A DNA stretch of 64,000 bases. Source: an uncultured Pseudomonadales bacterium. Lineage in GTDB: Bacteria > Patescibacteriota > Microgenomatia > UBA1400 > PJMF01. The stretch's first letter is position 1; every line of letters starts with the position of its first letter. Position numbers and translations under genes: made by a program. Location of the stretch: the NCBI GenBank assembly GCA_964406075.1, contig CAYOQI010000002.1, positions 160,565-224,564 on the forward strand, written 5' to 3'. Below are positions 5,931 to 51,630 of this stretch, piece after piece. The notes below the pieces were generated by a model. That model saw only the letters and a program-made list of their open reading frames with translations. It ran no database searches and had not been told where the DNA came from.

Positions 5931-5967
5931 CCTGCCTACCGGCAGGCAGGCCGCCGACGGAGGCGGG
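5931..5967. repeat. GC palindrome copy 1 (CCTGCCTACCGGCAGGCAGG) followed by hairpin CCGCC-GACGGA-GGCGG
   Basis: The 20-bp core at 5931..5950 recurs at 13970, 49098 and 49296. A second GC hairpin lies at 5951..5966. No U-tract follows on the + strand. Confidence 0.85.
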
Positions 5968-7331: not shown

Positions 7332-9614
7332 ATGGATACAGAATCCTCAAAATCCGCACATGATCTCAGCCTGCCAGCAATAAAAACTGTAGAGGTTGGG
7401 AATAGCCAACTACCCCTACCTTCAGCTACGAAGCACGAACGGGAAGAAACATCCGATGAGGCACTCTCATTTAATCCTGCAACAGAAATTAAAGTTGCAC
7501 ATCAACTAGTTAAGTCAGAATTAATTGCCGGTGGCGTTGAGTCCGATAAAATTAGTCGTGGTGAAATTAGAGAATCTACAATTTTGTATCTTGTTTACTG
7601 GTTTTATCGACTTCGTAATAACAACCAAGAGCAAGACAGAATTGGTCGTCATTTAATTGAATATATTGGAAAGGCAACGAGTGATCCAAACAGTTTAGCT
7701 GTTAATCTGGTTACGAATGTAGAACTACAAAAGGTAGCTAAAAAATACGTCGAGACGTTAATGATATCTCAGAAGACTGTTGATTTGGTGATTACTCCTG
7801 TCGGTTCAGAAGATAGTCAGGATAAAACCTTTCTCGCTATGCAACGAAGTTATTATCCTTTTGGCTTAGCTCTCCCTGGTGGTTTTATTAAAGATACCGA
7901 TGAAACAAATAATTTAGATGTTACCCCTGAGCTGTTTGCAGCCTTACGAATTGCCGGCGAAAAAGTGCTGGGTTTAGGCACTAATGCTGTTTACGAAAAG
8001 AGCGTCGATGCAAAAGGCCAAGCGTGTTTTATCGTTCATGGAGAAACTAGCCCTCCTTTAGTCCGTCTCTATCTTGAAGACATAGGAAGATTTCATTTTC
8101 GGGAAAATGTTAAAGCGACCTTTAGGCCTTCTGACCCTCGGCATGTTGTCGATACCATTGGTTTTAAGTGCGAAATTGAAGGTGAACCAGTAAGCGGCTT
8201 TTCATGGCAAAATAAAAACGCTGTCATGGATTCCGAAAAGCTCAATGGTGGCTTTGCATTGGGTCATCACAGAGAAATAGTTGCTCAGGTTACCAGTCGT
8301 AGTACTGTTGAAAAGGAACAGCAAATAAATGAAACAGAGTTCATTCGTGGTTTGATTCAAAATCCCTTAGAGCGTTACAACGAATTGAAAAAGCGTTTTG
8401 AAGCGAATGGCAACTCAGATGAGACTAACTTCCCAGAGTTATTCCCAGTTGTGGATCAGTTATTCAAAGGAATGTTTAGTGACGAAATTAACACAATGTG
8501 TAAAAAAGATCGAAGCTTAAAAGGGATTAGAGATAAAACCGTTATACATATTCGTCAGACAATATTAAAGGATGCTGGGGTTGTTCTTCCCTATCGCCCA
8601 ACTATTGATGCTATTGCACACGCTGTGGCTTTTTTCGATTTAGTAGCTCGAAATAAGAGGGATTTTTATGATTCACTCCCTTCTGACAGTATCATTGAAC
8701 ATAATCCTCGAGATACGAAGAATGCTTCCTATCATATGTATCGCTACGAACATCGTCTGAACAGTTTAAAAGCGATGCTCCCTCATGAGATCATTATTCC
8801 GACATTTGAGTCCCTTTCCGCAACTGATCTTTTGAAAGTTCGGAGCGTGCCAATTCGATTTTTGGGTATCAGTACTGACTTTCTGTACGTTGATGAATTT
8901 GAACAGTCACCTGAAGAATTCATGATGCACGATGCAAATCACTCCTGGCGTATGGCACAAGAAGACTTGAATGTCATGGAAGAGCGCGGCTGGACACGAG
9001 AACAATTAGTAGCAGAATCTACTGCTTTTAGTCAGGAATATTTAGCAAAAATAAAAATTCTCAAAACTGATAGCGAAGAGCAAAGAGAAATGAAAAAACT
9101 TAAAAAAATTATTCTGTTTGAGATTGTACATGAAGATGCTCGCCCATTCTTAAAAGACATAGTATGTAAGTATGTTCAGCAACAAGAAGGCGGTCATGTA
9201 CCTTTTTCAGTTCCCTTTGTAGATAAGAATACCGGATACATGAATATGGTAAAAACACTTGACACGGGTATCAGCACTTTATCTTATGTAAGAAACAAAC
9301 TCCAACATGGTTTTTATGATCAAGTTGATGCCCAGTTACCTCAAATTGTTGATCCCAAATACCGAACTGCTCGTTGGATTGCTAAAGCCGCGTATGACAT
9401 GCTTGTTGAATTAAATGCTTTACCAGTGGAAGGCGCTGAGGTGGACGAGTCAGGCCATGTTTCTTTTGAATGGTTGTTACGTCGAACGTGCGCCGTAGGG
9501 CCTGATAATGTACATGAAGCAACAATGGAAGATCCTGATGTTGGTGAATATGGTGATAAAGCTATTGTGAACTTGAAGCGCTATCAAATGATGAGTGAGA
9601 AATCACCATCATAA
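7332..9614 (+). CDS. Large hypothetical protein with a central degenerate Nudix-like segment
   Basis: 760-aa uninterrupted ORF. YPFGLALPGGFIKDTDE...ALRIAGEKVLGL resembles a decayed Nudix box (GX5EX7REUXEEXGU). I do not recognise the C-terminal ~430 aa. Confidence 0.7.
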   Translation: MDTESSKSAHDLSLPAIKTVEVGNSQLPLPSATKHEREETSDEALSFNPATEIKVAHQLVKSELIAGGVESDKISRGEIRESTILYLVYWFYRLRNNNQEQDRIGRHLIEYIGKATSDPNSLAVNLVTNVELQKVAKKYVETLMISQKTVDLVITPVGSEDSQDKTFLAMQRSYYPFGLALPGGFIKDTDETNNLDVTPELFAALRIAGEKVLGLGTNAVYEKSVDAKGQACFIVHGETSPPLVRLYLEDIGRFHFRENVKATFRPSDPRHVVDTIGFKCEIEGEPVSGFSWQNKNAVMDSEKLNGGFALGHHREIVAQVTSRSTVEKEQQINETEFIRGLIQNPLERYNELKKRFEANGNSDETNFPELFPVVDQLFKGMFSDEINTMCKKDRSLKGIRDKTVIHIRQTILKDAGVVLPYRPTIDAIAHAVAFFDLVARNKRDFYDSLPSDSIIEHNPRDTKNASYHMYRYEHRLNSLKAMLPHEIIIPTFESLSATDLLKVRSVPIRFLGISTDFLYVDEFEQSPEEFMMHDANHSWRMAQEDLNVMEERGWTREQLVAESTAFSQEYLAKIKILKTDSEEQREMKKLKKIILFEIVHEDARPFLKDIVCKYVQQQEGGHVPFSVPFVDKNTGYMNMVKTLDTGISTLSYVRNKLQHGFYDQVDAQLPQIVDPKYRTARWIAKAAYDMLVELNALPVEGAEVDESGHVSFEWLLRRTCAVGPDNVHEATMEDPDVGEYGDKAIVNLKRYQMMSEKSPS

Positions 9615-13604: not shown

Positions 13605-14003
13605 TTATTTTTTACCTTCAAGGTTAAGAGTTACAGCTGCTTTAATGAGGTCTTTAAATGCTTTTTCATCAAACTTATCTTCTTCATGAATGACGATAGC
13701 TCGATAAGTATTGATCAGACTTTGCGGATCACTACTTTCTTTAAGAAGTTTTCCTTTTGATAATCCTAATCTCAGATGTTTATTGTATACCTCACCAGTA
13801 GAAATTATTCCGTGGTGATACCACACGAGCACTCCATTTGGATTTGTCTTTGTTTTATATTTTACCTCCTCAATCATTTCTGGATCTGCTTCCCTGATAA
13901 GTTCACGAATCCGCGACATAACCTTCCCACGCCAATCATCTGGAATTTTAAACTCTGAATTATTTGAAACCTGCCTGCCGGCAGGCAGGATATCTCTAGT
14001 CAT
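13605..14003 (-). CDS. DUF1801 domain protein
   Basis: DDWRGKVMSRIRELIREADPEMIEEVKYKTK...VLVWYHHGIISTGEVYNKHLRLGLSKG fits DUF1801. The N-terminus MTRDILPAGRQV is encoded across palindrome copy 2. Confidence 0.7.
   Translation of the reverse strand: MTRDILPAGRQVSNNSEFKIPDDWRGKVMSRIRELIREADPEMIEEVKYKTKTNPNGVLVWYHHGIISTGEVYNKHLRLGLSKGKLLKESSDPQSLINTYRAIVIHEEDKFDEKAFKDLIKAAVTLNLEGKK
13970..13989. repeat. GC palindrome copy 2 (CCTGCCTGCCGGCAGGCAGG)
   Basis: Perfect 20-bp palindrome inside codons 6-12 (LPAGRQV) of CDS 13605..14003. Confidence 0.9.
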
Positions 14004-25656: not shown

Positions 25657-25680
25657 GCTCCCCGACCAGTCCACTTGAAG
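25657..25680 (-). repeat. tRNA-Asn 3'-end duplicate E
   Basis: Minus strand reads CTTCAAGTGGACTGGTCGGGGAGC. CTGGTCGGGGAGC (13 nt) is identical to the tRNA-Asn 3' end 95 nt away. Confidence 0.8.
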
Positions 25681-32531: not shown

Positions 32532-32632
32532 GCGGACGTTGTCCCGCCGAAGCCGAGCTTCAGCGAGGCGAAGCTCTCCTTCGCAAGCTCTAGCGGACTG
32601 CGTCCGCCGTAGCTCGCTTCGGCGAGCGAAGG
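32532..32632 (-). repeat. GC-rich multi-hairpin module abutting the tRNA-Ser 3' end (long form)
   Basis: In tRNA orientation the hairpins are GCTCGC-CGAA-GCGAGC, GGCGGAC-GCA-GTCCGC, GCGAAG-GAGAG-CTTCGC and GAAGC-TCG-GCTTC, followed by GGCGGGAC-AAC-GTCCGC. 32562..32636 is identical to 35913..35987. Confidence 0.9.
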
Positions 32633-32717
32633 CGGAGGGAGAGAGATTCGAACTCTCGGTAGCTTGCGCCACGGCGGTTTAGTAAACCGCTGCACTAGAC
32701 CACTATGCGATCCCTCC
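32633..32717 (-). tRNA. tRNA-Ser-like class II tRNA with apparent anticodon ACT
   Basis: GGAGGGA-TC-GCA-TAGTGGTCTAG-TGC-A-GCGGT-TTACTAA-ACCGC-CGTGGCGCAAGCTACC-GAGAG-TTCGAAT-CTCTC-TCCCTCC-G. The architecture matches the two other tRNA-Ser genes. Loop TTACTAA puts ACT at positions 34-36. Confidence 0.75.
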
Positions 32718-32782
32718 AAATTTATGAATGCTTGTCGGGAAGTCCTACTGGCTTAAAAGCCAAGATGGGCTACCCCCCTCCA
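32718..32782 (-). repeat. 5'-flank element: decayed tRNA 5' start plus conserved hairpin
   Basis: Minus strand reads GGAGGGGGGTAGCCCATC-TTGGCTTTTAAGCCAG-TAGGACTTCC-...TAAATTT, then the tRNA. It shares the 15-mer gaagtcctactggct with 41777..41791. Confidence 0.7.
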
Positions 32783-35586: not shown

Positions 35587-35627
35587 AAATGTCTAAGAAA
35601 ATGCTGAAGGCGATGGGATTTACCCTT

Positions 35628-35882
35628 TTATTTAATTTCTTCATTTACTAATTGATGCTTTTTCATGAAAGCTCTGCCCGAACCAGATTTTAAGTATTTC
35701 TCAAAATTGAAGGCCGTATATTTATTTGAAAATGCAAAATAAGAAATGAGTGATATTGGCAATCTGTCTTTTGTTGCAAGTACGTGACCGTTCTGATGTC
35801 TTGCGAGTCTAGCCTTCAGATTATCAGTACAACCTGTATAAGGTAAATAATCAGAACACTTAAGAATATAGACGTACCACAT
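35628..35882 (-). CDS. GIY-YIG nuclease family protein
   Basis: MWYVYILKCSDYLPYTGCTDNLKARLARHQNG. Confidence 0.85.
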   Translation of the reverse strand: MWYVYILKCSDYLPYTGCTDNLKARLARHQNGHVLATKDRLPISLISYFAFSNKYTAFNFEKYLKSGSGRAFMKKHQLVNEEIK

Positions 35883-35912
35883 CGATGGTATTAATTTTAC
35901 AGTAAATTATCT

Positions 35913-35983
35913 AGCGAGGCGAAGCTCTCCTTCGCAAGCTCTAGCGGACTGCGTCCGCCGTAGCTCGCTTCGGCGAGCGAAGG
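35913..35983 (-). repeat. GC-rich multi-hairpin module abutting the tRNA-Ser(GCT) 3' end
   Basis: 75/75 identity (35913..35987) with 32562..32636, although the two tRNA bodies differ. Confidence 0.9.
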
Positions 35984-36068
35984 CGGAAGCGATGGGATTC
36001 GAACCCATGAGCCTCTTTCGAGGCGCGGATTAGCAATCCGCTGCACTAGGCCACTATGCGACGCTTCC
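35984..36068 (-). tRNA. tRNA-Ser (anticodon GCT)
   Basis: GGAAGCG-TC-GCA-TAGTGGCCTAG-TGC-A-GCGGA-TTGCTAA-TCCGC-long variable arm-ATGGG-TTCGAAT-CCCAT-CGCTTCC-G. CCA is not encoded. Confidence 0.9.
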
Positions 36069-41429: not shown

Positions 41430-41565
41430 TTTTGAAAAATATGTAGATTTTTAGCATTAATAAAGTACAGAGAGTGAGGGATTTAGCCTCGTCATGCTCA
41501 AATTATTCTTTTTTGAGTGTATTCGCTTGATCGGGCACTATTGAAATCCCGCTTTCACTCATCTT

Positions 41566-41608
41566 GGCGGACTTTGTCCGCCGAAGCCGAGCTTCAGCGA
41601 GGCGAAGG
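41566..41608 (-). repeat. GC-rich hairpin module abutting the tRNA-Ser(TGA) 3' end (short form)
   Basis: 41578..41607 is identical to 32544..32573 (30 nt). It equals the long form minus 58 bp between gcgaag repeats and includes hairpin GGCGGAC-AAA-GTCCGCC. Confidence 0.85.
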
Positions 41609-41691: not shown

Positions 41692-41816
41692 TAAATTAAC
41701 AAACATTAACGAGGTAGTACTGCTGACTGTAAGTCAACATGTGCGACCTCTCCATAATTTACTTAAAACTACTGAGGAAGTCCTACTGGCTGAAAGCCAA
41801 TACGGGGGACCTCTCA
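41692..41816 (-). repeat. Two tandem ~62-nt units, each starting with a copy of the tRNA-Ser 5' end followed by a hairpin
   Basis: Unit 1 (41753..41692) is GGAGAGGTCGCA (12/12 with tRNA nt 1-12), then GTTGACT-TAC-AGTCAGC. Unit 2 (41816..41754) is TGAGAGGTCCCCCGTA-TTGGCT-TTC-AGCCAG-TAGGACTTCC. Confidence 0.75.
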
Positions 41817-47628: not shown

Positions 47629-48663
47629 ATGGCAAATTTTTGGCATACCCTTCCAGCAGGTTTTATCGGTCTCTCTCCAATGGATGGAGTGACTGACTGT
47701 GCCTTTCGAACCATTTCAAAAAAACACGGTAATCCGGATGTGATGTATACCGAGTTTACAAGTGTCGAAGGAATTGCCCATGGTGCCACTCGCTTACTGC
47801 GTGATTTTTTATACGAAGAAACTCAACGACCGATTATCGCCCAAGTGTTTGGACATACCCCCAGAGATTTCTATACTTCCACGATTGTTGTGTGCGAACT
47901 TGGATTTGATGCAATAGATATCAATATGGGTTGTCCGATGAAAAATATTGCATCACAAGGCAGTGGCGCTGCATTGATTCGAACTCCAAAGCTCGCTCAA
48001 GAAATTATTCGATCAGTTCAACAAGCGGTCATCGACTGGTCGAATGGAAAAACATTAGATGATATTGATCTGACTGATGAAATGAAATCAGTACTTTCAC
48101 AAAGGAAAGTATCAAGGCAAGATAAAGAACCGTTGCCTGTTTCTGTTAAAACCAGAATTGGATATGACAATCCAGTCATTGAAGAATGGATTCCCAATTT
48201 ACTTGAAATGAAACCAGTCGCAATTGCAATTCATGGTCGAACCTTGAAACAAGCCTATTCGGGACAAGCTCAATGGGAATTTATTGGAAAAGCAGTTGAA
48301 CTTGCAAAAGATTCTGACACGTTAATGATTGGCAATGGTGATGTCAAAAGTGTGGCACATGCACGAGAACGCATTCGTGATTATGGCGTAGATGGTGTAT
48401 TAATCGGTCGAGAAGCATTTGGTAATCCGTGGATTTTTAAGGAAAAAATCCCTACCGCCAGCGAAAGATTTTCTGTCGCCATTGAGCACGTCGAACTATA
48501 TGAGAAGTTGCATTCACATGAGGCGTTTTACCAATTTATACCAATGCGAAAACATCTCGGTTGGTATATCAAAGATATGCCCAGGGCTGCTGAAATCAGA
48601 CAACAACTTTTTTCAAGTCATACAGCAGAAGAAGTACTGCATATATTGAAAAATAATTTATGA
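47629..48663 (+). CDS. dus: tRNA-dihydrouridine synthase
   Basis: LSPMDGVTDCAFR, IDINMGCP, VSVKTRIG and IAIHGRT. Confidence 0.9.
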   Translation: MANFWHTLPAGFIGLSPMDGVTDCAFRTISKKHGNPDVMYTEFTSVEGIAHGATRLLRDFLYEETQRPIIAQVFGHTPRDFYTSTIVVCELGFDAIDINMGCPMKNIASQGSGAALIRTPKLAQEIIRSVQQAVIDWSNGKTLDDIDLTDEMKSVLSQRKVSRQDKEPLPVSVKTRIGYDNPVIEEWIPNLLEMKPVAIAIHGRTLKQAYSGQAQWEFIGKAVELAKDSDTLMIGNGDVKSVAHARERIRDYGVDGVLIGREAFGNPWIFKEKIPTASERFSVAIEHVELYEKLHSHEAFYQFIPMRKHLGWYIKDMPRAAEIRQQLFSSHTAEEVLHILKNNL

Positions 48664-49040
48664 TAGAAACCCAACCTAGTACAGTAAGAATTTTCGAAGC
48701 AAAAAAAGATTCTCCTCTTTTACTTCCTTTCACAAGAGGAAAATTTATTCGATCAGAAAAAAAGATATTCTTTGCTGAATTTTCAACTGAAGTTCATCAC
48801 TGGCAGTTAGCAGGAACATCAAAACGTACAGATGCCTTATCTGCAAGATATGATGATGCCGGCTTAATAATAAAGAGTAAAAATAATCTTATTCTTTTAA
48901 CTGGCGCATCAGGAGGATTAAGAAATCAAAAAGGTGTAGACTTTGCACAACTTTCAGAAGAAGATCTTTTGTTATTACACAATCAAACTGCTCTCATGCT
49001 AAACGGAATGAATTTAGGAGTGAATTTTTCTGTAATCTAA
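48660..49040 (+). CDS. Hypothetical protein
   Basis: 126-aa ORF with a 4-nt overlap with dus. Confidence 0.5.
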   Translation: MIETQPSTVRIFEAKKDSPLLLPFTRGKFIRSEKKIFFAEFSTEVHHWQLAGTSKRTDALSARYDDAGLIIKSKNNLILLTGASGGLRNQKGVDFAQLSEEDLLLLHNQTALMLNGMNLGVNFSVI

Positions 49041-49061
49041 TTACAAACCACAAAAGATATG

Positions 49062-49094
49062 TGGACCCGACAGGATTCGAACCTGTGACCTCAC
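49062..49094 (-). pseudogene. Orphan tRNA 3' fragment (variable loop, T arm, acceptor 3' strand)
   Basis: Minus strand reads GAGGTC-ACAGG-TTCGAAT-CCTGT-CGGGTCC-A. No matching GGACCCG 5' strand or D arm lies upstream; palindrome copy 3 sits there instead. Confidence 0.65.
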
Positions 49095-49097
49095 GAA

Positions 49098-49117
49098 CCT
49101 GCCTACCGGCAGGCAGG
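49098..49117. repeat. GC palindrome copy 3 (CCTGCCTACCGGCAGGCAGG)
   Basis: Extended by flanking TCAC/GTGA pairing. It lies between tRNA-Val and the tRNA fragment. Confidence 0.9.
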
Positions 49118-49150
49118 TGTGAATCATAGAATTTTTCAAACCGAAAACCG

Positions 49151-49224
49151 TGCTCACACCAGGACTCGAACCTGGGACCTCTGCAATGTGAATGCAGCGC
49201 TCTAACCAACTGAGCTATGTGAGC
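49151..49224 (-). tRNA. tRNA-Val (anticodon CAC)
   Basis: GCTCACA-TA-GCTC-AGTTGGTTA-GAGC-G-CTGCA-TTCACAT-TGCAG-AGGTC-CCAGG-TTCGAGT-CCTGG-TGTGAGC-A. Confidence 0.9.
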
Positions 49225-49275
49225 ACAAAATAGAATAACCTCAGCCATAGGCTGCCGGCCCGCCTCTGGAGGGAT

Positions 49276-49315
49276 CCGCCTTGGGCGGAAACTGACCTGC
49301 CTGCCGGCAGGCAGG
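49276..49315. repeat. Hairpin CCGCC-TTG-GGCGG plus GC palindrome copy 4 (CCTGCCTGCCGGCAGGCAGG)
   Basis: Palindrome at 49296..49315. It lies within the ~110-nt GC-rich leader between the promoter and tRNA-Val. Confidence 0.9.
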
Positions 49316-49340
49316 GCTACGAGTCCGTTAGCAGACTGCT

Positions 49341-49349
49341 AGTATACCA
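49341..49349 (-). promoter_or_regulatory. Extended -10 promoter (TGGTATACT) for the tRNA-Val transcription unit
   Basis: Minus strand reads AATGGTATACTAGCAG. Confidence 0.45.
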
Positions 49350-49415
49350 TTTCTCCCATCGCAACTCGATCATCATATTGATTCACGAACTATTTCAGCC
49401 GTAGGATAGTAATTG

Positions 49416-50045
49416 ATGTCTTCTCTACTTTGGGATTTTATCAGTCCACCTTTTTGTGCAAGCTGTGAATCTTCTGGGAATTACCTTTGTCCCAATTGTT
49501 TAAAAAAATTGCAGTTTTACTCTGATCCTATTCCTTCCCAACTCCAAACCAATTATCTTGATGAATTGTATGCAACGGTACACTTCACTTCTCCTGCGAC
49601 TGAACTCATCCATTTATTAAAATTTAAGAGCTACTGGAGTTTAGCTGAACCGATTGCAGAGATCATGACTACCTTTCTTCCAATGTCCGAAAAATTAACA
49701 CTATTAACTTCAATTCCACTTCATAAGCAACGTGAATGGGATCGCGGATTTAACCAATCTGAAAAAATTGCTGAATTCCTGAGTCGAAAATGGAAAGTAA
49801 AAAGAAAGAAATTATTAATAAGAAAAAAAGCTACAACCCCTCAGGCTGAGTTGAATAGAGAAAAAAGATTAACACATGTACAGAACGCTTTTATATATCA
49901 AAGTAAAGTAAATCTGCAAAACGAAGTGGTCGGATTAGTCGATGATGTCTCGACAACAGGTACTACGTTAAATGAATGTGCGAAAGTTTTAAAAGAACAT
50001 GGAGCAAAAAAAGTTATTGGAATTGTCTTCGCGCATGGAAAATGA
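49416..50045 (+). CDS. comF: ComF-family phosphoribosyltransferase-domain protein
   Basis: N-terminal Cys pairs CASC...CPNC and a C-terminal PRTase motif VGLVDDVSTTGTTL. Confidence 0.85.
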   Translation: MSSLLWDFISPPFCASCESSGNYLCPNCLKKLQFYSDPIPSQLQTNYLDELYATVHFTSPATELIHLLKFKSYWSLAEPIAEIMTTFLPMSEKLTLLTSIPLHKQREWDRGFNQSEKIAEFLSRKWKVKRKKLLIRKKATTPQAELNREKRLTHVQNAFIYQSKVNLQNEVVGLVDDVSTTGTTLNECAKVLKEHGAKKVIGIVFAHGK

Positions 50046-50198
50046 AAAAAAGAAATTGGAATGAATACACTTAGTATTTTGAGTAATACAAAAAAATATG
50101 CGTATAGACAATTACTTGTAAGCATTCAACAATAGAAAGTACCATTCAAAATTATCCGCTATGGAGGACAAAAACTTAATAGTAAAGAAGGACAACAT

Positions 50199-51083
50199 AT
50201 GTCATGGTTATCGAGCTTACTCACTAAAACTTTGTCATCAGCACCAAAATCTATTCCGCTCCCGGTTTCTCGAAATAAAGGGGTTATTACTCCAGGATTA
50301 AAAAAGAGTGTCACGCAAGCTTTTAAAGATTACCAAAAAAATGGCGTCGCAATCATTCCAAAGGTTTTCACCAAACAAGAGGCTGATAATATTCGCGCAG
50401 CCACCTTCATGACCTTGACTACACTGCACATGAGTACAGACTACACCGCTCGTCACCGAGAATTAGAAACACGAACTCGACCAGATCAGGAATATCCTCT
50501 TTTACTATTTTGGCCATCATTACGAAACCAATATCTGAATGATATTCGGGAAGATCGTCGTTACCAATATATTTTAAAAAAGTTTTTAGGTGATGATATT
50601 AAACAATTAAATAACCAAGTCTACTTTCGAATGCCTGGAGATGGAGATTCATTTCATTGGCATCAAGATGTGGTATTTCGAACTCCGGCTGAAGATTATC
50701 CTGGAATTGAAGACAGTTATTTACAAACCATTGTTGTCGTCGATGAAATTACTCCAGACAATGGGGCGGTAGAGTACGTGCACGGATCTCACAAATTGGG
50801 GAATCTCCAGTTGACTGATCCTCAGTTTAAAAATTTGCGAGAATTTGATACGAAAGTAGTGAAAAAATTATTTCCTAAAGATACACCCAAAAAAGCGTTA
50901 GCCCAACCTGGGGATGTTCTCGTATGGTCAGTCATGTCAGTTCATGGCTCCCGACCAAACAACTCACCGCATATGCGGATGACCTATATGAATGGATTTG
51001 CTAAAGCAACGGCTGCAAAAAATTGGCCAATGTACTTGGAGAATGGCAAACTTCAGCCACTAGATCCTAGTAAAATTATCTAA
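50199..51083 (+). CDS. Phytanoyl-CoA dioxygenase (PhyH) family Fe(II)/2-OG oxygenase
   Basis: FHWHQD...GAVEYVHGSHK...MSVHGSRPN (HxD...H facial triad). Confidence 0.75.
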   Translation: MSWLSSLLTKTLSSAPKSIPLPVSRNKGVITPGLKKSVTQAFKDYQKNGVAIIPKVFTKQEADNIRAATFMTLTTLHMSTDYTARHRELETRTRPDQEYPLLLFWPSLRNQYLNDIREDRRYQYILKKFLGDDIKQLNNQVYFRMPGDGDSFHWHQDVVFRTPAEDYPGIEDSYLQTIVVVDEITPDNGAVEYVHGSHKLGNLQLTDPQFKNLREFDTKVVKKLFPKDTPKKALAQPGDVLVWSVMSVHGSRPNNSPHMRMTYMNGFAKATAAKNWPMYLENGKLQPLDPSKII

Positions 51084-51219: not shown

Positions 51220-51624
51220 GGGGATGTACCGCTTCGACGTGTACGTACTTTTACATCTGCAGACCATCTCTGACACTTGAGATGTTAATACCAGTGTTAA
51301 ACCAAAACTGAAACAATTTCAGCCAAAGTGCAAAAAATTGGTCGAGAAATCGCCAGTCTTTTCACTCCAGTAGCTACTCCAGCTTACGCTTTAGTAGCCT
51401 AATGGCATTCGCTTGATTCTCTCACGGACGGAATCTTGCGGGTGACAACTCAGTGCGTGTGACTGTTTCTTCGTACAGTTCCGAAGAGACGTAAGCCTTT
51501 GAACTGCAGACAAGATGACCGGTTGGTCCGATAACCACTTCTTGTCACACTGAAAATCGGAACATGTCTGTAGAAGATGTCATCGTAGAGTATGCGGACA
51601 GGGGCTCACTGCCCCTCATCTCCA
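51220..51624 (+). ncRNA. ssrA: tmRNA (SsrA)
   Basis: The 5' end is GGGGATGTACCGCTTCGACG. The 3' acceptor CATCTCC-A pairs with GGGGATG, including G3:U70. The tag reading frame ends ...CCAGCTTACGCTTTAGTAGCCTAA (PAYALVA*), with the stop at 51400..51402. Confidence 0.9.
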
Positions 51625-51630
51625 CAAAAG

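Follow-up and report, generated by a model that had tools for sequence, protein, structure and literature searches.

Within the 64,000-nt stretch of DNA analysed here (the window), the resident tRNA-Val(CAC) gene is split. What had been described as a "hairpin leader" consists of nt 1–22 of this old gene, and what had been taken for an "orphan" tRNA 3' half consists of its nt 31–76. The same scar pattern recurs at tRNA genes of many uncultured bacteria and some phages.

The features described below lie on the minus strand, and the palindromes are given without strand. The locus begins with an extended -10 promoter, TGGTATACT (49341..49349), the original tRNA-Val gene's own. Its TGnTATAnT pattern is unchanged in all aligned relatives (the window and L002–L005), and the nested tRNA now has no other promoter-like signal upstream. 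A scan of 48900–49500 found no sigma-70-type site; such a scan needs a -35 hexamer and is therefore blind to this extended -10. The promoter is followed by nt 1–11 of the old tRNA, GGACTCGTAGC (49316..49326), which include the 5' acceptor strand, U8 A9 and the start of the D stem and match the intact tRNA-Val of the relative L004 exactly, at equal spacing from the promoter. Palindrome copy 4, CCTGCCTGCCGGCAGGCAGG (49296..49315), is a precise 20-bp insertion at old nt 11/12 in the D stem, and its flanks GTAGC|TCAGTT are contiguous in L004. Old nt 12–17, TCAGTT (D stem and loop, 49290..49295), were recognized from the sequence and the comparison with L004. A GC-rich hairpin cluster (49241..49289) is inserted at old nt 17/18 and comprises TCCGCCCAAGGCGGA (49289..49275), TCCCTCCAGAGGCGGGCCGG (49274..49255) and CAGCCTATGGCTG (49254..49242). 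L146, L244 and L068 have near-identical hairpins at this point of the D loop, and other intact tRNAs follow downstream. The old 5' fragment ends with nt 18–22, GGTTA (49236..49240), and the breakpoint GGTTA| is also present in L189, within a fragment of the A type (see below).

An inserted cassette of about 112 bp (49125..49235) replaces old nt 23–30. It is composed of an 11-nt linker TTCTATTTTGT, an intact tRNA-Val(CAC), here called the B allele (49224..49151), and a 26-nt AT-rich spacer, and the 7-nt direct repeat ATTCTAT is found at both of its edges. Old nt 31–37, ATTCACA (49118..49124), contain the anticodon loop including CAC and immediately precede palindrome copy 3, CCTGCCTGCCGGTAGGCAGG on the tRNA strand (49098..49117), which is inserted at old nt 37/38 in the anticodon loop. 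Old nt 38–76 (49062..49097), assigned by reconstruction and comparison with L004, contribute TTCGTG, the variable loop AGGTC, the T arm, the acceptor 3' strand CGGGTCC and the discriminator A; TTCGTG carries three substitutions, at nt 40–42. A terminator-like hairpin, CCACATATCTTTTGTGG, followed by a T-rich tail (49038..49064), overlaps the end of the old gene. The old 5' and 3' fragments are separated by only 224 nt, and GGACTCG (49326..49320) pairs with CGGGTCC with one G·U, next to TAGC (nt 8–11 of the same tRNA). The fragment, palindrome copy 3 and the spacer are reproduced in an independent assembly, L001 (Logan SRR12762304). The genes around the locus are Dus, a 126-aa ORF without a Pfam match, ComF and PhyH.

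The initial annotation had placed every element that it listed correctly on the minus strand, namely the extended -10, the tRNA-Val(CAC) (49150/49151–49224; ARAGORN, and 74 bits in Rfam), the palindrome copies at 49098–49117 and 49296–49315, the hairpins CCGCC-CAA-GGCGG and CAGCC-TAT-GGCTG, and the fragment GAGGTC-ACAGG-TTCGAAT-CCTGT-CGGGTCC-A at 49092..49062. Its reading of these elements needs revision. The matching 5' half, said to be absent from the window, lies right after the promoter as GGACTCG and TAGC. The 3' fragment, described as starting at the variable loop and having no 5' half, was drawn too short; it covers nt 31–76 with the palindrome at 37/38. The GC-rich leader does exist as a sequence, but its origin is old nt 1–22 interrupted by hairpin insertions. 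The proposal that an element had inserted into or replaced part of a tRNA gene was right about disruption and partial replacement, but not about the palindromes, which are not the boundaries of the insert. Moreover, it was the resident tRNA-Val(CAC) of this locus that was disrupted; both of its ends are kept, and the intact tRNA-Val is nested between them.

The old gene can be recognized from L004, a related Patescibacteria contig in which an intact tRNA-Val(CAC), the A allele, has the same promoter and adjoins comF. The old-gene bases surviving in the window are colinear with L004 and identical at 62 of 65 positions, and the orphan is identical from GAGGTC onward (32/32); ComF is only 66% identical between the two. 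According to the initial annotation, an intact copy with an identical 3' half elsewhere would have pointed to a simple duplication remnant. Such a copy exists, but it sits at the orthologous site in L004, so the fragment is an in-place remnant and not a stray duplication. The window carries an A remnant and an intact B, and L002 carries a B remnant (28/30 identical to the 3' half of the window's B) and an intact C. An intact C-type allele with a GGCCACT acceptor is found in L003, a related intact allele with a GGCCGTT acceptor in L005, and the intact A in L004. B and the old A allele agree in 61 of 74 positions. These states show that the A, B and C alleles succeed one another at the comF-linked locus and leave remnants of their predecessors; recipient tRNA has been replaced non-reciprocally by donor sequence, with alleles differing between relatives. 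On the other side of the tRNA, the window shares no conserved neighbouring gene with L004 or L002, so the orthology is taken from the promoter–tRNA–comF side only.

The inner tRNA-Val(CAC) (49151–49224) fits the full-length Rfam model with 74 bits against a gathering score of 29. It is called Val(CAC) by ARAGORN, and the conserved extended -10 lies 116 nt upstream. With its cloverleaf, covariance score and upstream promoter, it is predicted to be a functional gene. The outer gene, GGACTCG.../...CGGGTCCA, has its acceptor strands and T arm. Since nt 23–30 are missing and nt 40–42 are mutated, no anticodon stem can form, and because the D-stem 3' strand is gone as well, the outer gene is dead and makes no complete cloverleaf. 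At the RNA level, the outer tRNA's own ends read GGACUCG.../...CGGGUCCA. Neither ARAGORN (introns allowed or not) nor Rfam called the outer gene, the inner tRNA being the sole call, and Rfam at permissive E-values returned the inner tRNA alone, plus chance or antisense matches. ARAGORN run on 48001–50500 with introns and a 70% threshold proposed a 95-nt "tRNA-SeC" over the orphan, which was rejected as a poor model with an unpaired acceptor. A functional split tRNA had been considered unlikely by the initial annotation, and we agree: the joined halves are incomplete, with about 9 nt and the anticodon stem missing, and there is no intron family match. An integrase att scar, which would be a direct repeat at the end of a kb-scale island, was also rejected; the insert is 112 bp and the neighbours include no integrase. 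In addition, a search of the window allowing up to 3 mismatches gave no second copy of the 22-nt orphan sequence GGTTCGAATCCTGTCGGGTCCA, and the 3' half of the inner tRNA differs from the orphan.

The palindrome has four matches in the window, the two described above and two more at 5931 and 13970, versus none in 100 shuffles. The identical 20-mer is present in at least 120 species genomes across phyla, including Flavobacteria, Planctomycetes and candidate-phyla bacteria, as well as in at least 120 metagenome contigs and 48 viral contig stretches (phages included), although it is low-copy in the stretches sampled. In 37 cases, removal of just 20 bp restores the junction, exactly or with 1 mismatch, as seen in a neighbouring intact tRNA, so insertion involves neither target duplication nor loss. 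The D-stem site at old nt 11/12 recurs in 18 of these 37 junctions (15 at position 11 and 3 at position 12), and both insertion sites in tRNA D stems reduce to GC^TC on one strand or the other. Flanking stems of at least 6 bp accompany 14% of the palindrome copies versus 2.5% of controls. In tRNA contexts, most copies of the 20-mer lie in a displaced tRNA fragment that has an intact tRNA next to it; overall the 20-mer occurs mostly singly and outside tRNA contexts, and an unbiased genome scan tied only 6 of 127 copies to tRNA remnants. Over 261 flanks we found no conserved flank or target motif, except A depletion at +1 and a modest TTCG enrichment (8 flanks). Only 20–22-mer repeats, and no longer repeat unit, were found around the window palindromes. 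When 3126 ORFs located up to 2 kb from the palindrome at 168 loci were clustered all against all, no common family emerged as partner gene; the largest cluster covered 7 loci, and no TnpA was found near the palindrome. Since the old tRNA continues on both sides of each copy, the palindromes are separate precise 20-bp insertions; this colinearity led us to reject them as cassette ends. A MITE, with terminal inverted repeats and a target-site duplication, was rejected on the lack of duplication at the 37 restored junctions, and REP/REPIN membership on the lack of a flank consensus, the identity across phyla and phages and the lack of an enriched family within 2 kb. Relative to the tRNA strand, G·T and A·C variants of the palindrome are about equally numerous, as counted by eye.

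Scars of this kind are common beyond the window. Among 120 distinct metagenome palindrome contexts, 68 are tRNA 5' fragments, in a set picked by the pattern TAGN-palindrome-KC, which favours D-arm contexts. An intact tRNA lies within 700 nt of the fragment in 51 of the 57 contexts with enough downstream sequence, and a GIY-YIG ORF is directly downstream in 31 of the 68 fragments. A palindrome beside a tRNA fragment is no coincidence, as the initial annotation would have had it for a duplication remnant; it recurs in dozens of independent loci. A tRNA nested in a split tRNA whose outer acceptor strands match exactly was found in L026/L230, L181, L203 and L236. In L026, L181 and L203 the inner and outer tRNAs differ in identity, and these three loci have one palindrome copy only. 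Palindrome–tRNA–palindrome sandwiches are present in the window, L146, L143, L168, L211, L126 and L244. L148 retains two generations of 3' remnants, and in L148, L146 and L242 the cassettes split the old gene at 35/36. The breakpoints of the displaced fragments vary from nt 17 to nt 45, so that, unlike in classical homing, insertion is not confined to one site.

GIY-YIG genes are linked to tRNA genes and partial tRNA duplicates in these data. Of 57 GIY-YIG ORFs, 43 have a tRNA no more than 150 nt away, and so have 6 of the 7 ORFs with no palindrome near them. Their products match Pfam PF01541 and the PDB entries of UPF0213/SLX1 (1zg2, 1ywl, SLX1 6seh), and the match covers the catalytic domain only; these predicted nucleases of about 80–92 aa have no DNA-binding domain. 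The window has one such gene at 35631–35906, after tRNA-Ser(GCT) and followed by a 3' remnant. No GIY-YIG gene is found in 49041–49412 and no recognisable remnant of one in the 112-bp cassette, so the tRNA-Val locus does not have the GIY-YIG gene adjacent to the affected tRNA that a SegB-like system has; a nuclease may be linked to this locus purely by analogy with the others.

On balance, we lean towards reading the locus as the scar of a nuclease-driven overwriting of a tRNA gene, with the nuclease gene since gone and mini-palindromes arriving later. The starting state would be a single tRNA-Val(CAC) A allele with its own extended -10 promoter and a weak terminator, in which a 112-bp cassette bearing the complete, different B allele then replaced nt 23–30. 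The most likely agent would be homing or gene conversion by small stand-alone GIY-YIG nucleases (UPF0213/SLX1-like). The nuclease would break the tRNA gene, repair would copy in a donor cassette (nuclease gene plus a tRNA or tRNA part), and entry of the cassette would displace pieces of the old gene. The nuclease gene at the tRNA-Val locus would subsequently have been lost, and the dead halves would have been colonised by GC-rich mini-palindromes, including the two 20-nt perfect palindrome copies; the latter insert precisely and without target duplication in stems and loops of tRNA remnants and in other hairpins. At present the old promoter would transcribe the B tRNA with nt 1–22 as a long 5' leader and nt 31–76 as a 3' trailer, from which RNase P and 3'-end processing would release the inner tRNA. 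The data show the anatomy of the split gene, the turnover of alleles among relatives, the precise and recurrent palindrome insertions and the linkage of GIY-YIG genes to tRNAs; we infer the delivery of this particular cassette by a GIY-YIG event, the order of events, the transcription and the processing.

The nuclease model is favoured because GIY-YIG genes lie tightly against tRNA genes and are flanked by partial tRNA duplicates. This strong link, seen in the window too, and the experimentally shown nuclease-driven route of SegB (PMC2330249, PMC13096335) weigh against the same scar having formed without a homing nuclease, whether by illegitimate or microhomology recombination of transformed DNA or by template switching during replication, which would use D-arm/T-arm sequence common to tRNA genes, the palindromes coming later. 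We still regard nuclease-free entry as a lesser but serious possibility: the tRNA-Val locus has no nuclease gene, the breakpoints differ among loci, the ATTCTAT repeat stands at both cassette edges, a GIY-YIG ORF is missing at about half of the fragments that carry a palindrome, and the inner and outer identities sometimes differ (L026, L181, L203). An RNA function is unlikely. Here the paired palindromes, as a 20–21-bp helix, would form with the old acceptor and T arm an RNase III-type processing stalk, like those around rRNAs, and the stalk would serve to release or stabilise the inner tRNA. Both the minimum-energy and the centroid fold of the 291-nt transcript pair the two palindromes, the former also pairing GGACUCG with CGGGUCC (z = -4.8); the palindrome duplex is predicted at -46.5 kcal/mol versus -25.7 for two separate hairpins, the orphan is undecayed save nt 40–42, and sandwiches recur. 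But the local hairpins would form earlier, during transcription, the palindrome is mostly single and outside tRNA contexts, many nested loci (L026, L181, L203) have one copy, and the palindrome is invariant, so there is no covariation to test.

The recurrence of sandwiches in the window and in L146, L143, L168, L211, L126 and L244 would also suit a composite mobile unit, in which the palindromes are terminal repeats and palindrome, tRNA cassette and palindrome moved as one piece, as would the fact that two copies of a perfect palindrome are direct and inverted repeats at once. We consider this quite improbable, as the old tRNA is colinear on both sides of the copies (nt 11|12 and 37|38), fitting separate insertions, dozens of loci have the palindrome at these D-stem sites without a partner copy, its surroundings show no enrichment of a transposase-like gene and no target is duplicated. 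There is very little to recommend the orphan as an att remnant of an integrase island, or as half of a still-functional split or intron-containing tRNA, even though orphan tRNA 3' ends are classic island scars and Patescibacteria tRNAs carry group I introns at 35/36 (PMC13011429): the matching 5' fragment is 224 nt away, the 112-bp insert has no integrase, the inner tRNA's 3' half is unlike the orphan, nt 23–30 are gone and nt 40–42 mutated so that an anticodon stem is impossible, no intron or other RNA family matches, and ARAGORN with introns calls no outer gene.

Our literature searches on GIY-YIG, tRNA and Patescibacteria returned no description of this architecture, the nearest being SegB, and no paper containing the palindrome sequences was found. 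SegB of phages T4 and T6 is a free-standing homing endonuclease in a tRNA gene cluster; the T4 enzyme, of the GIY-YIG type, recognises a motif of the tRNA T arm and causes tRNA genes to be co-inherited and amplified (PMC2330249, PMC13096335). The likeness extends to a GIY-YIG gene among tRNA genes, a tRNA-gene DNA target (the T-arm motif), neighbouring tRNA genes that are co-converted, replaced and amplified in segments, and repeat units with truncated parts. SegB differs in its site-specific recognition (a 27-bp site) and has been studied in phages, whereas here bacterial chromosomes encode proteins that are bare catalytic domains, the scars consist of tRNA duplicates that are nested or partial, and the Val locus retains no nuclease gene; nor have GC-rich palindromes been reported for SegB. 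Remnants of integrase islands and prophages resemble our locus in that an orphan tRNA 3' part beside a functional tRNA is an insertion footprint. Here, in contrast, there is no integrase or island, the 112-bp insert carries a whole tRNA, a 5' remnant is present too, and the 3' end of the functional gene is not repeated in the orphan.

REP/REPIN sequences, Rickettsia palindromic elements and yeast-mitochondrial GC clusters are short GC-rich non-autonomous palindromes scattered intergenically and in some cases found within genes, RNA genes included. A REP is an imperfect palindrome restricted to its lineage, present in high copy and characterised by a conserved GTAG head and a RAYT partner, whereas the 20-mer is perfect, identical across phyla and phages and low-copy in the stretches sampled, with no conserved flank, target duplication or enriched neighbouring gene. 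Elements of the IS200/IS605 type insert without duplication, in a hairpin-dependent manner, 3' of a fixed tetra- or pentanucleotide; for our palindrome no duplication is seen and copies are enriched inside other hairpins, the sites in tRNA D stems reduce to GC^TC, no target common to all copies is seen and no TnpA was found nearby. Mobile small tRNA introns are known from Thermoproteales archaea. Group I introns occupy position 35/36 of Patescibacteria tRNAs (PMC13011429). These introns are also anticodon-loop or non-canonical insertions in tRNA genes, those of Patescibacteria in the same phylum, but our insert carries a tRNA and not a ribozyme, splicing cannot restore the outer gene and no Rfam intron family matches.

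A wider reading can be put forward only tentatively, as one that we doubt more than we believe. It would make CCTGCCTGCCGGCAGGCAGG, together with hairpins like TCCGCCAGAGGCGGA and CAGCCTATGGCTG, an undescribed kind of ultra-small mobile DNA within an "overwrite and scar" cycle of tRNA genes. As parts of this joint reading, the palindrome class would be common to many bacterial phyla and their phages, it would insert precisely and without duplication in stem-loop DNA, chiefly in tRNA pieces displaced by UPF0213-type GIY-YIG cassettes, and small-genome bacteria would have their tRNA genes continually replaced through this previously unrecognised cycle. Hairpin targets may be opened, for cassette and palindrome alike, by the structure-specific GIY-YIG nuclease itself. 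If true, one small selfish cassette after another would overwrite tRNA genes in Patescibacteria and other bacteria, each supplying a substitute for the tRNA that it destroys; this natural "cut and rescue" logic is so far known from phage SegB. Horizontal transfer of tRNA alleles could then occur with no island involved. Such a process would also account for orphan tRNA halves, for long GC-rich "leaders" and for odd tRNA calls in metagenome-assembled genomes, which bears on annotation. Apart from this, the identity of 20 bases across phyla and phages and the base-pair-precise insertion point to a very widespread mobilising activity, and the many filled and empty site pairs collected here make this activity directly testable.

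The promoter, tRNA-Val, two palindromes and tRNA fragment described in the initial annotation are all real and at their coordinates. On the minus strand, an extended -10 element (TGGTATACT, 49349..49341) is followed by palindrome copy 4 (49315..49296), an intact tRNA-Val(CAC) called by ARAGORN and Rfam (49224..49151), palindrome copy 3 (49117..49098) and the orphan tRNA-like fragment GAGGTC-ACAGG-TTCGAAT-CCTGT-CGGGTCC-A (49092..49062). Both palindromes are exact matches to the 20-mer CCTGCCTRCCGGYAGGCAGG, which occurs 4 times in the window and 0 times in 100 shuffles. L001, assembled independently from the same strain, also carries the fragment, copy 3 and the spacer. The genes around the locus encode Dus, ComF, PhyH and FtsK, and the homologues of ComF were named as Patescibacteria, which marks the DNA as chromosomal and from a candidate-phyla bacterium. 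A tmRNA gene lies close by, 2 kb from the locus, and is intact (51220-51627, plus strand, Rfam 64 bits). The orphan is unrelated to it, scoring only 9.9 bits against the tmRNA model, at the end that resembles a tRNA.

We retrieved the comF-linked locus from four relatives (L002-L005) for comparison. All four carry a tRNA-Val(CAC) upstream of comF, in divergent orientation and preceded by a conserved TGnTATAnT, and L004, whose ComF is 66% identical to that of the window, has the intact gene GGACTCGTAGCTCAGTTGGTTAGAGCGCTTCATTCACATTGAAGAGGTCACAGGTTCGAATCCTGTCGGGTCCA. The orphan equals the last 32 bases of this L004 gene (32/32), and the first 11 bases of the gene, GGACTCGTAGC, are present at 49326..49316, with the same spacing from the promoter in the window and L004. 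A matching 5' half had previously been reported as missing from the window, the strand sought being GGACCCG; the real one is GGACTCG, which pairs with CGGGTCC, one G·U pair included. The rest of the old gene follows on the minus strand: nt 12-17 (TCAGTT) directly after copy 4, a 49-nt GC-rich hairpin cluster, nt 18-22 (GGTTA), a 112-bp cassette (TTCTATTTTGT, the intact tRNA-Val and a 26-nt spacer), nt 31-37 (ATTCACA, anticodon loop) and, after copy 3, nt 38-76 (TTCGTG plus the orphan). Altogether 62 of the 65 retained old bases are identical to L004, and the three mismatches are nt 40-42. The outer gene was not called by ARAGORN (introns allowed) or Rfam, and it cannot fold because old nt 23-30 are absent.

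Since the old sequence order runs on across each palindrome copy, the palindromes are not the ends of an insert. Copies 3 and 4 are two separate exact 20-bp insertions, at 37/38 (anticodon loop) and 11/12 (D stem), respectively. The earlier idea that an element inserted into or replaced part of a tRNA gene holds in part, but not with the palindrome as the boundary of that element. The “GC-rich hairpin leader” is by origin no leader but the old 5' fragment filled with hairpins. Overwriting of a tRNA gene in place, with a scar left behind, largely accounts for the Val locus. A 7-nt direct repeat, ATTCTAT, stands at both cassette edges (49229-49235 and 49126-49132, minus strand; chance roughly 1-3%) and may be microhomology or a duplication made by the insertion event.

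The inner tRNA-Val (B allele) is identical to the old one (A allele) at 61 of 74 positions; the changes are mostly in the acceptor stem, and one base pair each of the anticodon stem and the T stem shows compensatory changes. L002 has an intact third allele (C), then a remnant consisting of a D-arm piece, hairpins and AGGTCCCAGGTTCGAATCCTGGTGCGAGCA, whose 3' half shares 28 of 30 positions with the inner allele of the window. With a B-type remnant in L002 and an A-type remnant in the window, alleles therefore succeed one another at this locus, from A to B in the window and from B to C in L002, with pieces of the predecessor left each time. On the far side of the tRNA, these relatives have no conserved neighbouring gene.

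The palindrome goes far beyond a local repeat. At least 120 stretches from species-representative genomes contain the exact 20-mer (set L006-L125; about two expected by chance in 596 Gb), as do 48 viral-contig stretches (L246-L293), besides the metagenome set (L126-L245). The genome matches listed cover Patescibacteria, Bacteroidota, Planctomycetes, Omnitrophota, Nitrospirota, Chloroflexi and Proteobacteria, and cultured Bacteroidota with the exact 20-mer include Winogradskyella, Flagellimonas and Olivibacter. A single 29.5-kb viral contig holds several copies. The flanks are unrelated and without consensus, no protein family is enriched nearby, and we found no paper containing the sequence. 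Some copies are nested within other copies (L025, L031, L064 and L070). Flanking stems of at least 6 bp accompany 14% of copies versus 2.5% of controls, so the palindrome lies within other hairpins more often than controls do; copies also occur in terminator loops, e.g. L116. In the window, copy 1 (5931-5950) is preceded by a short ORF that is HTH-like, and a second hairpin, CCGCCGACGGAGGCGG, adjoins it. Copy 2 (13970-13989) falls within codons 1-11 of ORF 13605-14003 in its longest reading, and hence probably lies in a short spacer ahead of the true start.

Several of the unbiased genome matches lie in a tRNA 5' fragment with an intact tRNA just downstream (L026, L049 and L057). The metagenomes were scanned with the pattern TAGN-palindrome-KC, and the counts from this pattern-selected sample are lower bounds. 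Among the matches listed, 68 of 120 distinct metagenome contexts are clear tRNA D-arm fragments, and 51 of the 57 such fragments having room are within 700 nt of an intact tRNA. At 37 junctions, deleting the 20 bp alone gives back the sequence found in the neighbouring intact tRNA, with no mismatch or a single one; insertion is therefore precise and without duplication. These sites fall at nt 11/12 (n = 18) and nt 22-25 (n = 16), occasionally in the D loop or T loop, and the two chief sites mirror each other across the D stem (GC^TC on either strand). Breakpoints of the displaced fragments range over nt 17-45. Six further loci show palindrome-tRNA-palindrome sandwiches as in the window, true nesting of a different intact tRNA inside exactly complementary outer acceptor strands is seen in L026/L230, L181, L203 and L236, and L148 keeps 3' remnants of two generations.

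Upstream of Val(TAC) and Ile(GAT) genes, L146, L244 and L068 have hairpins near-identical to the window cluster (TCCGCCAGAGGCGGA, CAGCCTWWGGCTG and the CCCGCCCG...CGGGCGGG stem), placed at matching sites in the D loop. The conserved module in these displaced 5' fragments (L068 1785-1860; L146 2700-2830, minus strand; L244 3815-3900) reads TCAGTT-TCCGCCAGAGGYGGA-(C)CAGCCTWWGGCTG(G)-GGTTA, to which L068 and L146 add the CCCGCCCG..CGGGCGGG stem and GAGC. The entire hairpin-laden D arm may spread as one unit. Elsewhere, the palindrome is found within tRNA genes that are otherwise complete. One is a viral tRNA-Met with the palindrome in its variable loop (L277 2239-2330), still recognised by ARAGORN as a tRNA-Met of 92 nt. 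In L213 (minus strand, near 7390) a complete tRNA has it at 11/12, and in L211 (near 497) it is in the 3' D stem of a copy of tRNA-Lys from which only the 5' acceptor strand is missing.

Directly 3' of 31 of the 68 fragments, among the matches listed, is a small ORF starting M-Y-(F/Y)-V-Y-I-L-K-S. This ORF codes for just a GIY-YIG catalytic domain (PF01541), with UPF0213 proteins and the structure-specific nuclease SLX1 as closest solved structures. Across all fetched DNA, 43 of 57 GIY-YIG ORFs have a tRNA no more than 150 nt away, as do 6 of the 7 that are distant from any palindrome; the chance rate is roughly estimated at 6% (201 tRNAs in 2.09 Mb). The window itself has a 92-aa PF01541 ORF (35631-35906, minus strand) 76 nt downstream of tRNA-Ser(GCT) (35982-36068, minus strand), followed on the same strand by a degenerate repeat of the T loop and 3' end of tRNA-Ser(GCT) (GGGTAAATCCCATCGCCTTCAGCA, 35625..35602), and 35602-35906 resembles a nuclease cassette next to a 3' remnant that it displaced. 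By analogy, a GIY-YIG nuclease is a candidate driver at the Val locus. The nearest experimental precedent is phage SegB, a GIY-YIG homing endonuclease within a tRNA cluster that recognises the T-arm motif, forces inheritance of its own tRNA region and generates repeat units containing tRNA (PMC2330249, PMC13096335).

We propose, as the most likely history, that a foreign tRNA-Val cassette was copied into the resident gene by a nuclease-initiated or otherwise recombinational event, that the nuclease gene, if ever present, has since been lost, and that palindromes accumulated in the dead halves afterwards. The old promoter would drive the new tRNA; within the insert, a promoter scan gave no site of sigma-70 type, and the old gene end is followed by a terminator-like hairpin. 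In the predicted fold of the whole transcript (z = -4.8) the two palindromes pair in a 21-bp helix, and at minimum energy the old acceptor stem is closed as well; the predicted duplex has -46.5 kcal/mol versus -25.7 for two separate hairpins. Speculatively, this helix could be a processing stalk. The surprise lies in a ubiquitous, precisely inserting 20-nt palindrome together with a recurrent GIY-YIG/tRNA scar architecture, and we found neither described in the literature.

Other tRNA remnants are present on the minus strand of the window. Orphan 3'-end copies lie about 100-125 nt 3' of the intact tRNA-Asn (CTGGTCGGGGAGC, 25657-25669) and tRNA-Ser(TGA) (GAGGCTAAATCCCTCACTCTCTG, 41468-41490), and the DNA between may contain decayed nuclease-gene ends. 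A repeat resembling a 5' fragment, GGAGGGGGGTAGCC...hairpin...ACTTCCC (32781..32737), stands just upstream of a tRNA-Ser (32631-32717, ARAGORN) whose anticodon, ACT, is unusual, and two similar repeats (41815..41774 and 41753..41711) precede tRNA-Ser(TGA). All three tRNA-Ser genes share a GC-rich multi-hairpin trailer (35915-35981, 32540-32630 and 41560-41606), with TTCGCTCGCCGAAGCGAGCTACGGCGGACGCAGTCCGCTAGAGCTTGCGAAGGAGAGCTTCGCCTCGCT common to Ser(GCT) and Ser(ACT) and the TTCGCCTCGCTGAAGCTCGGCTTCGGCGG part common to Ser(ACT) and Ser(TGA); with this trailer, a further repeated module of hairpins is linked to tRNA genes.
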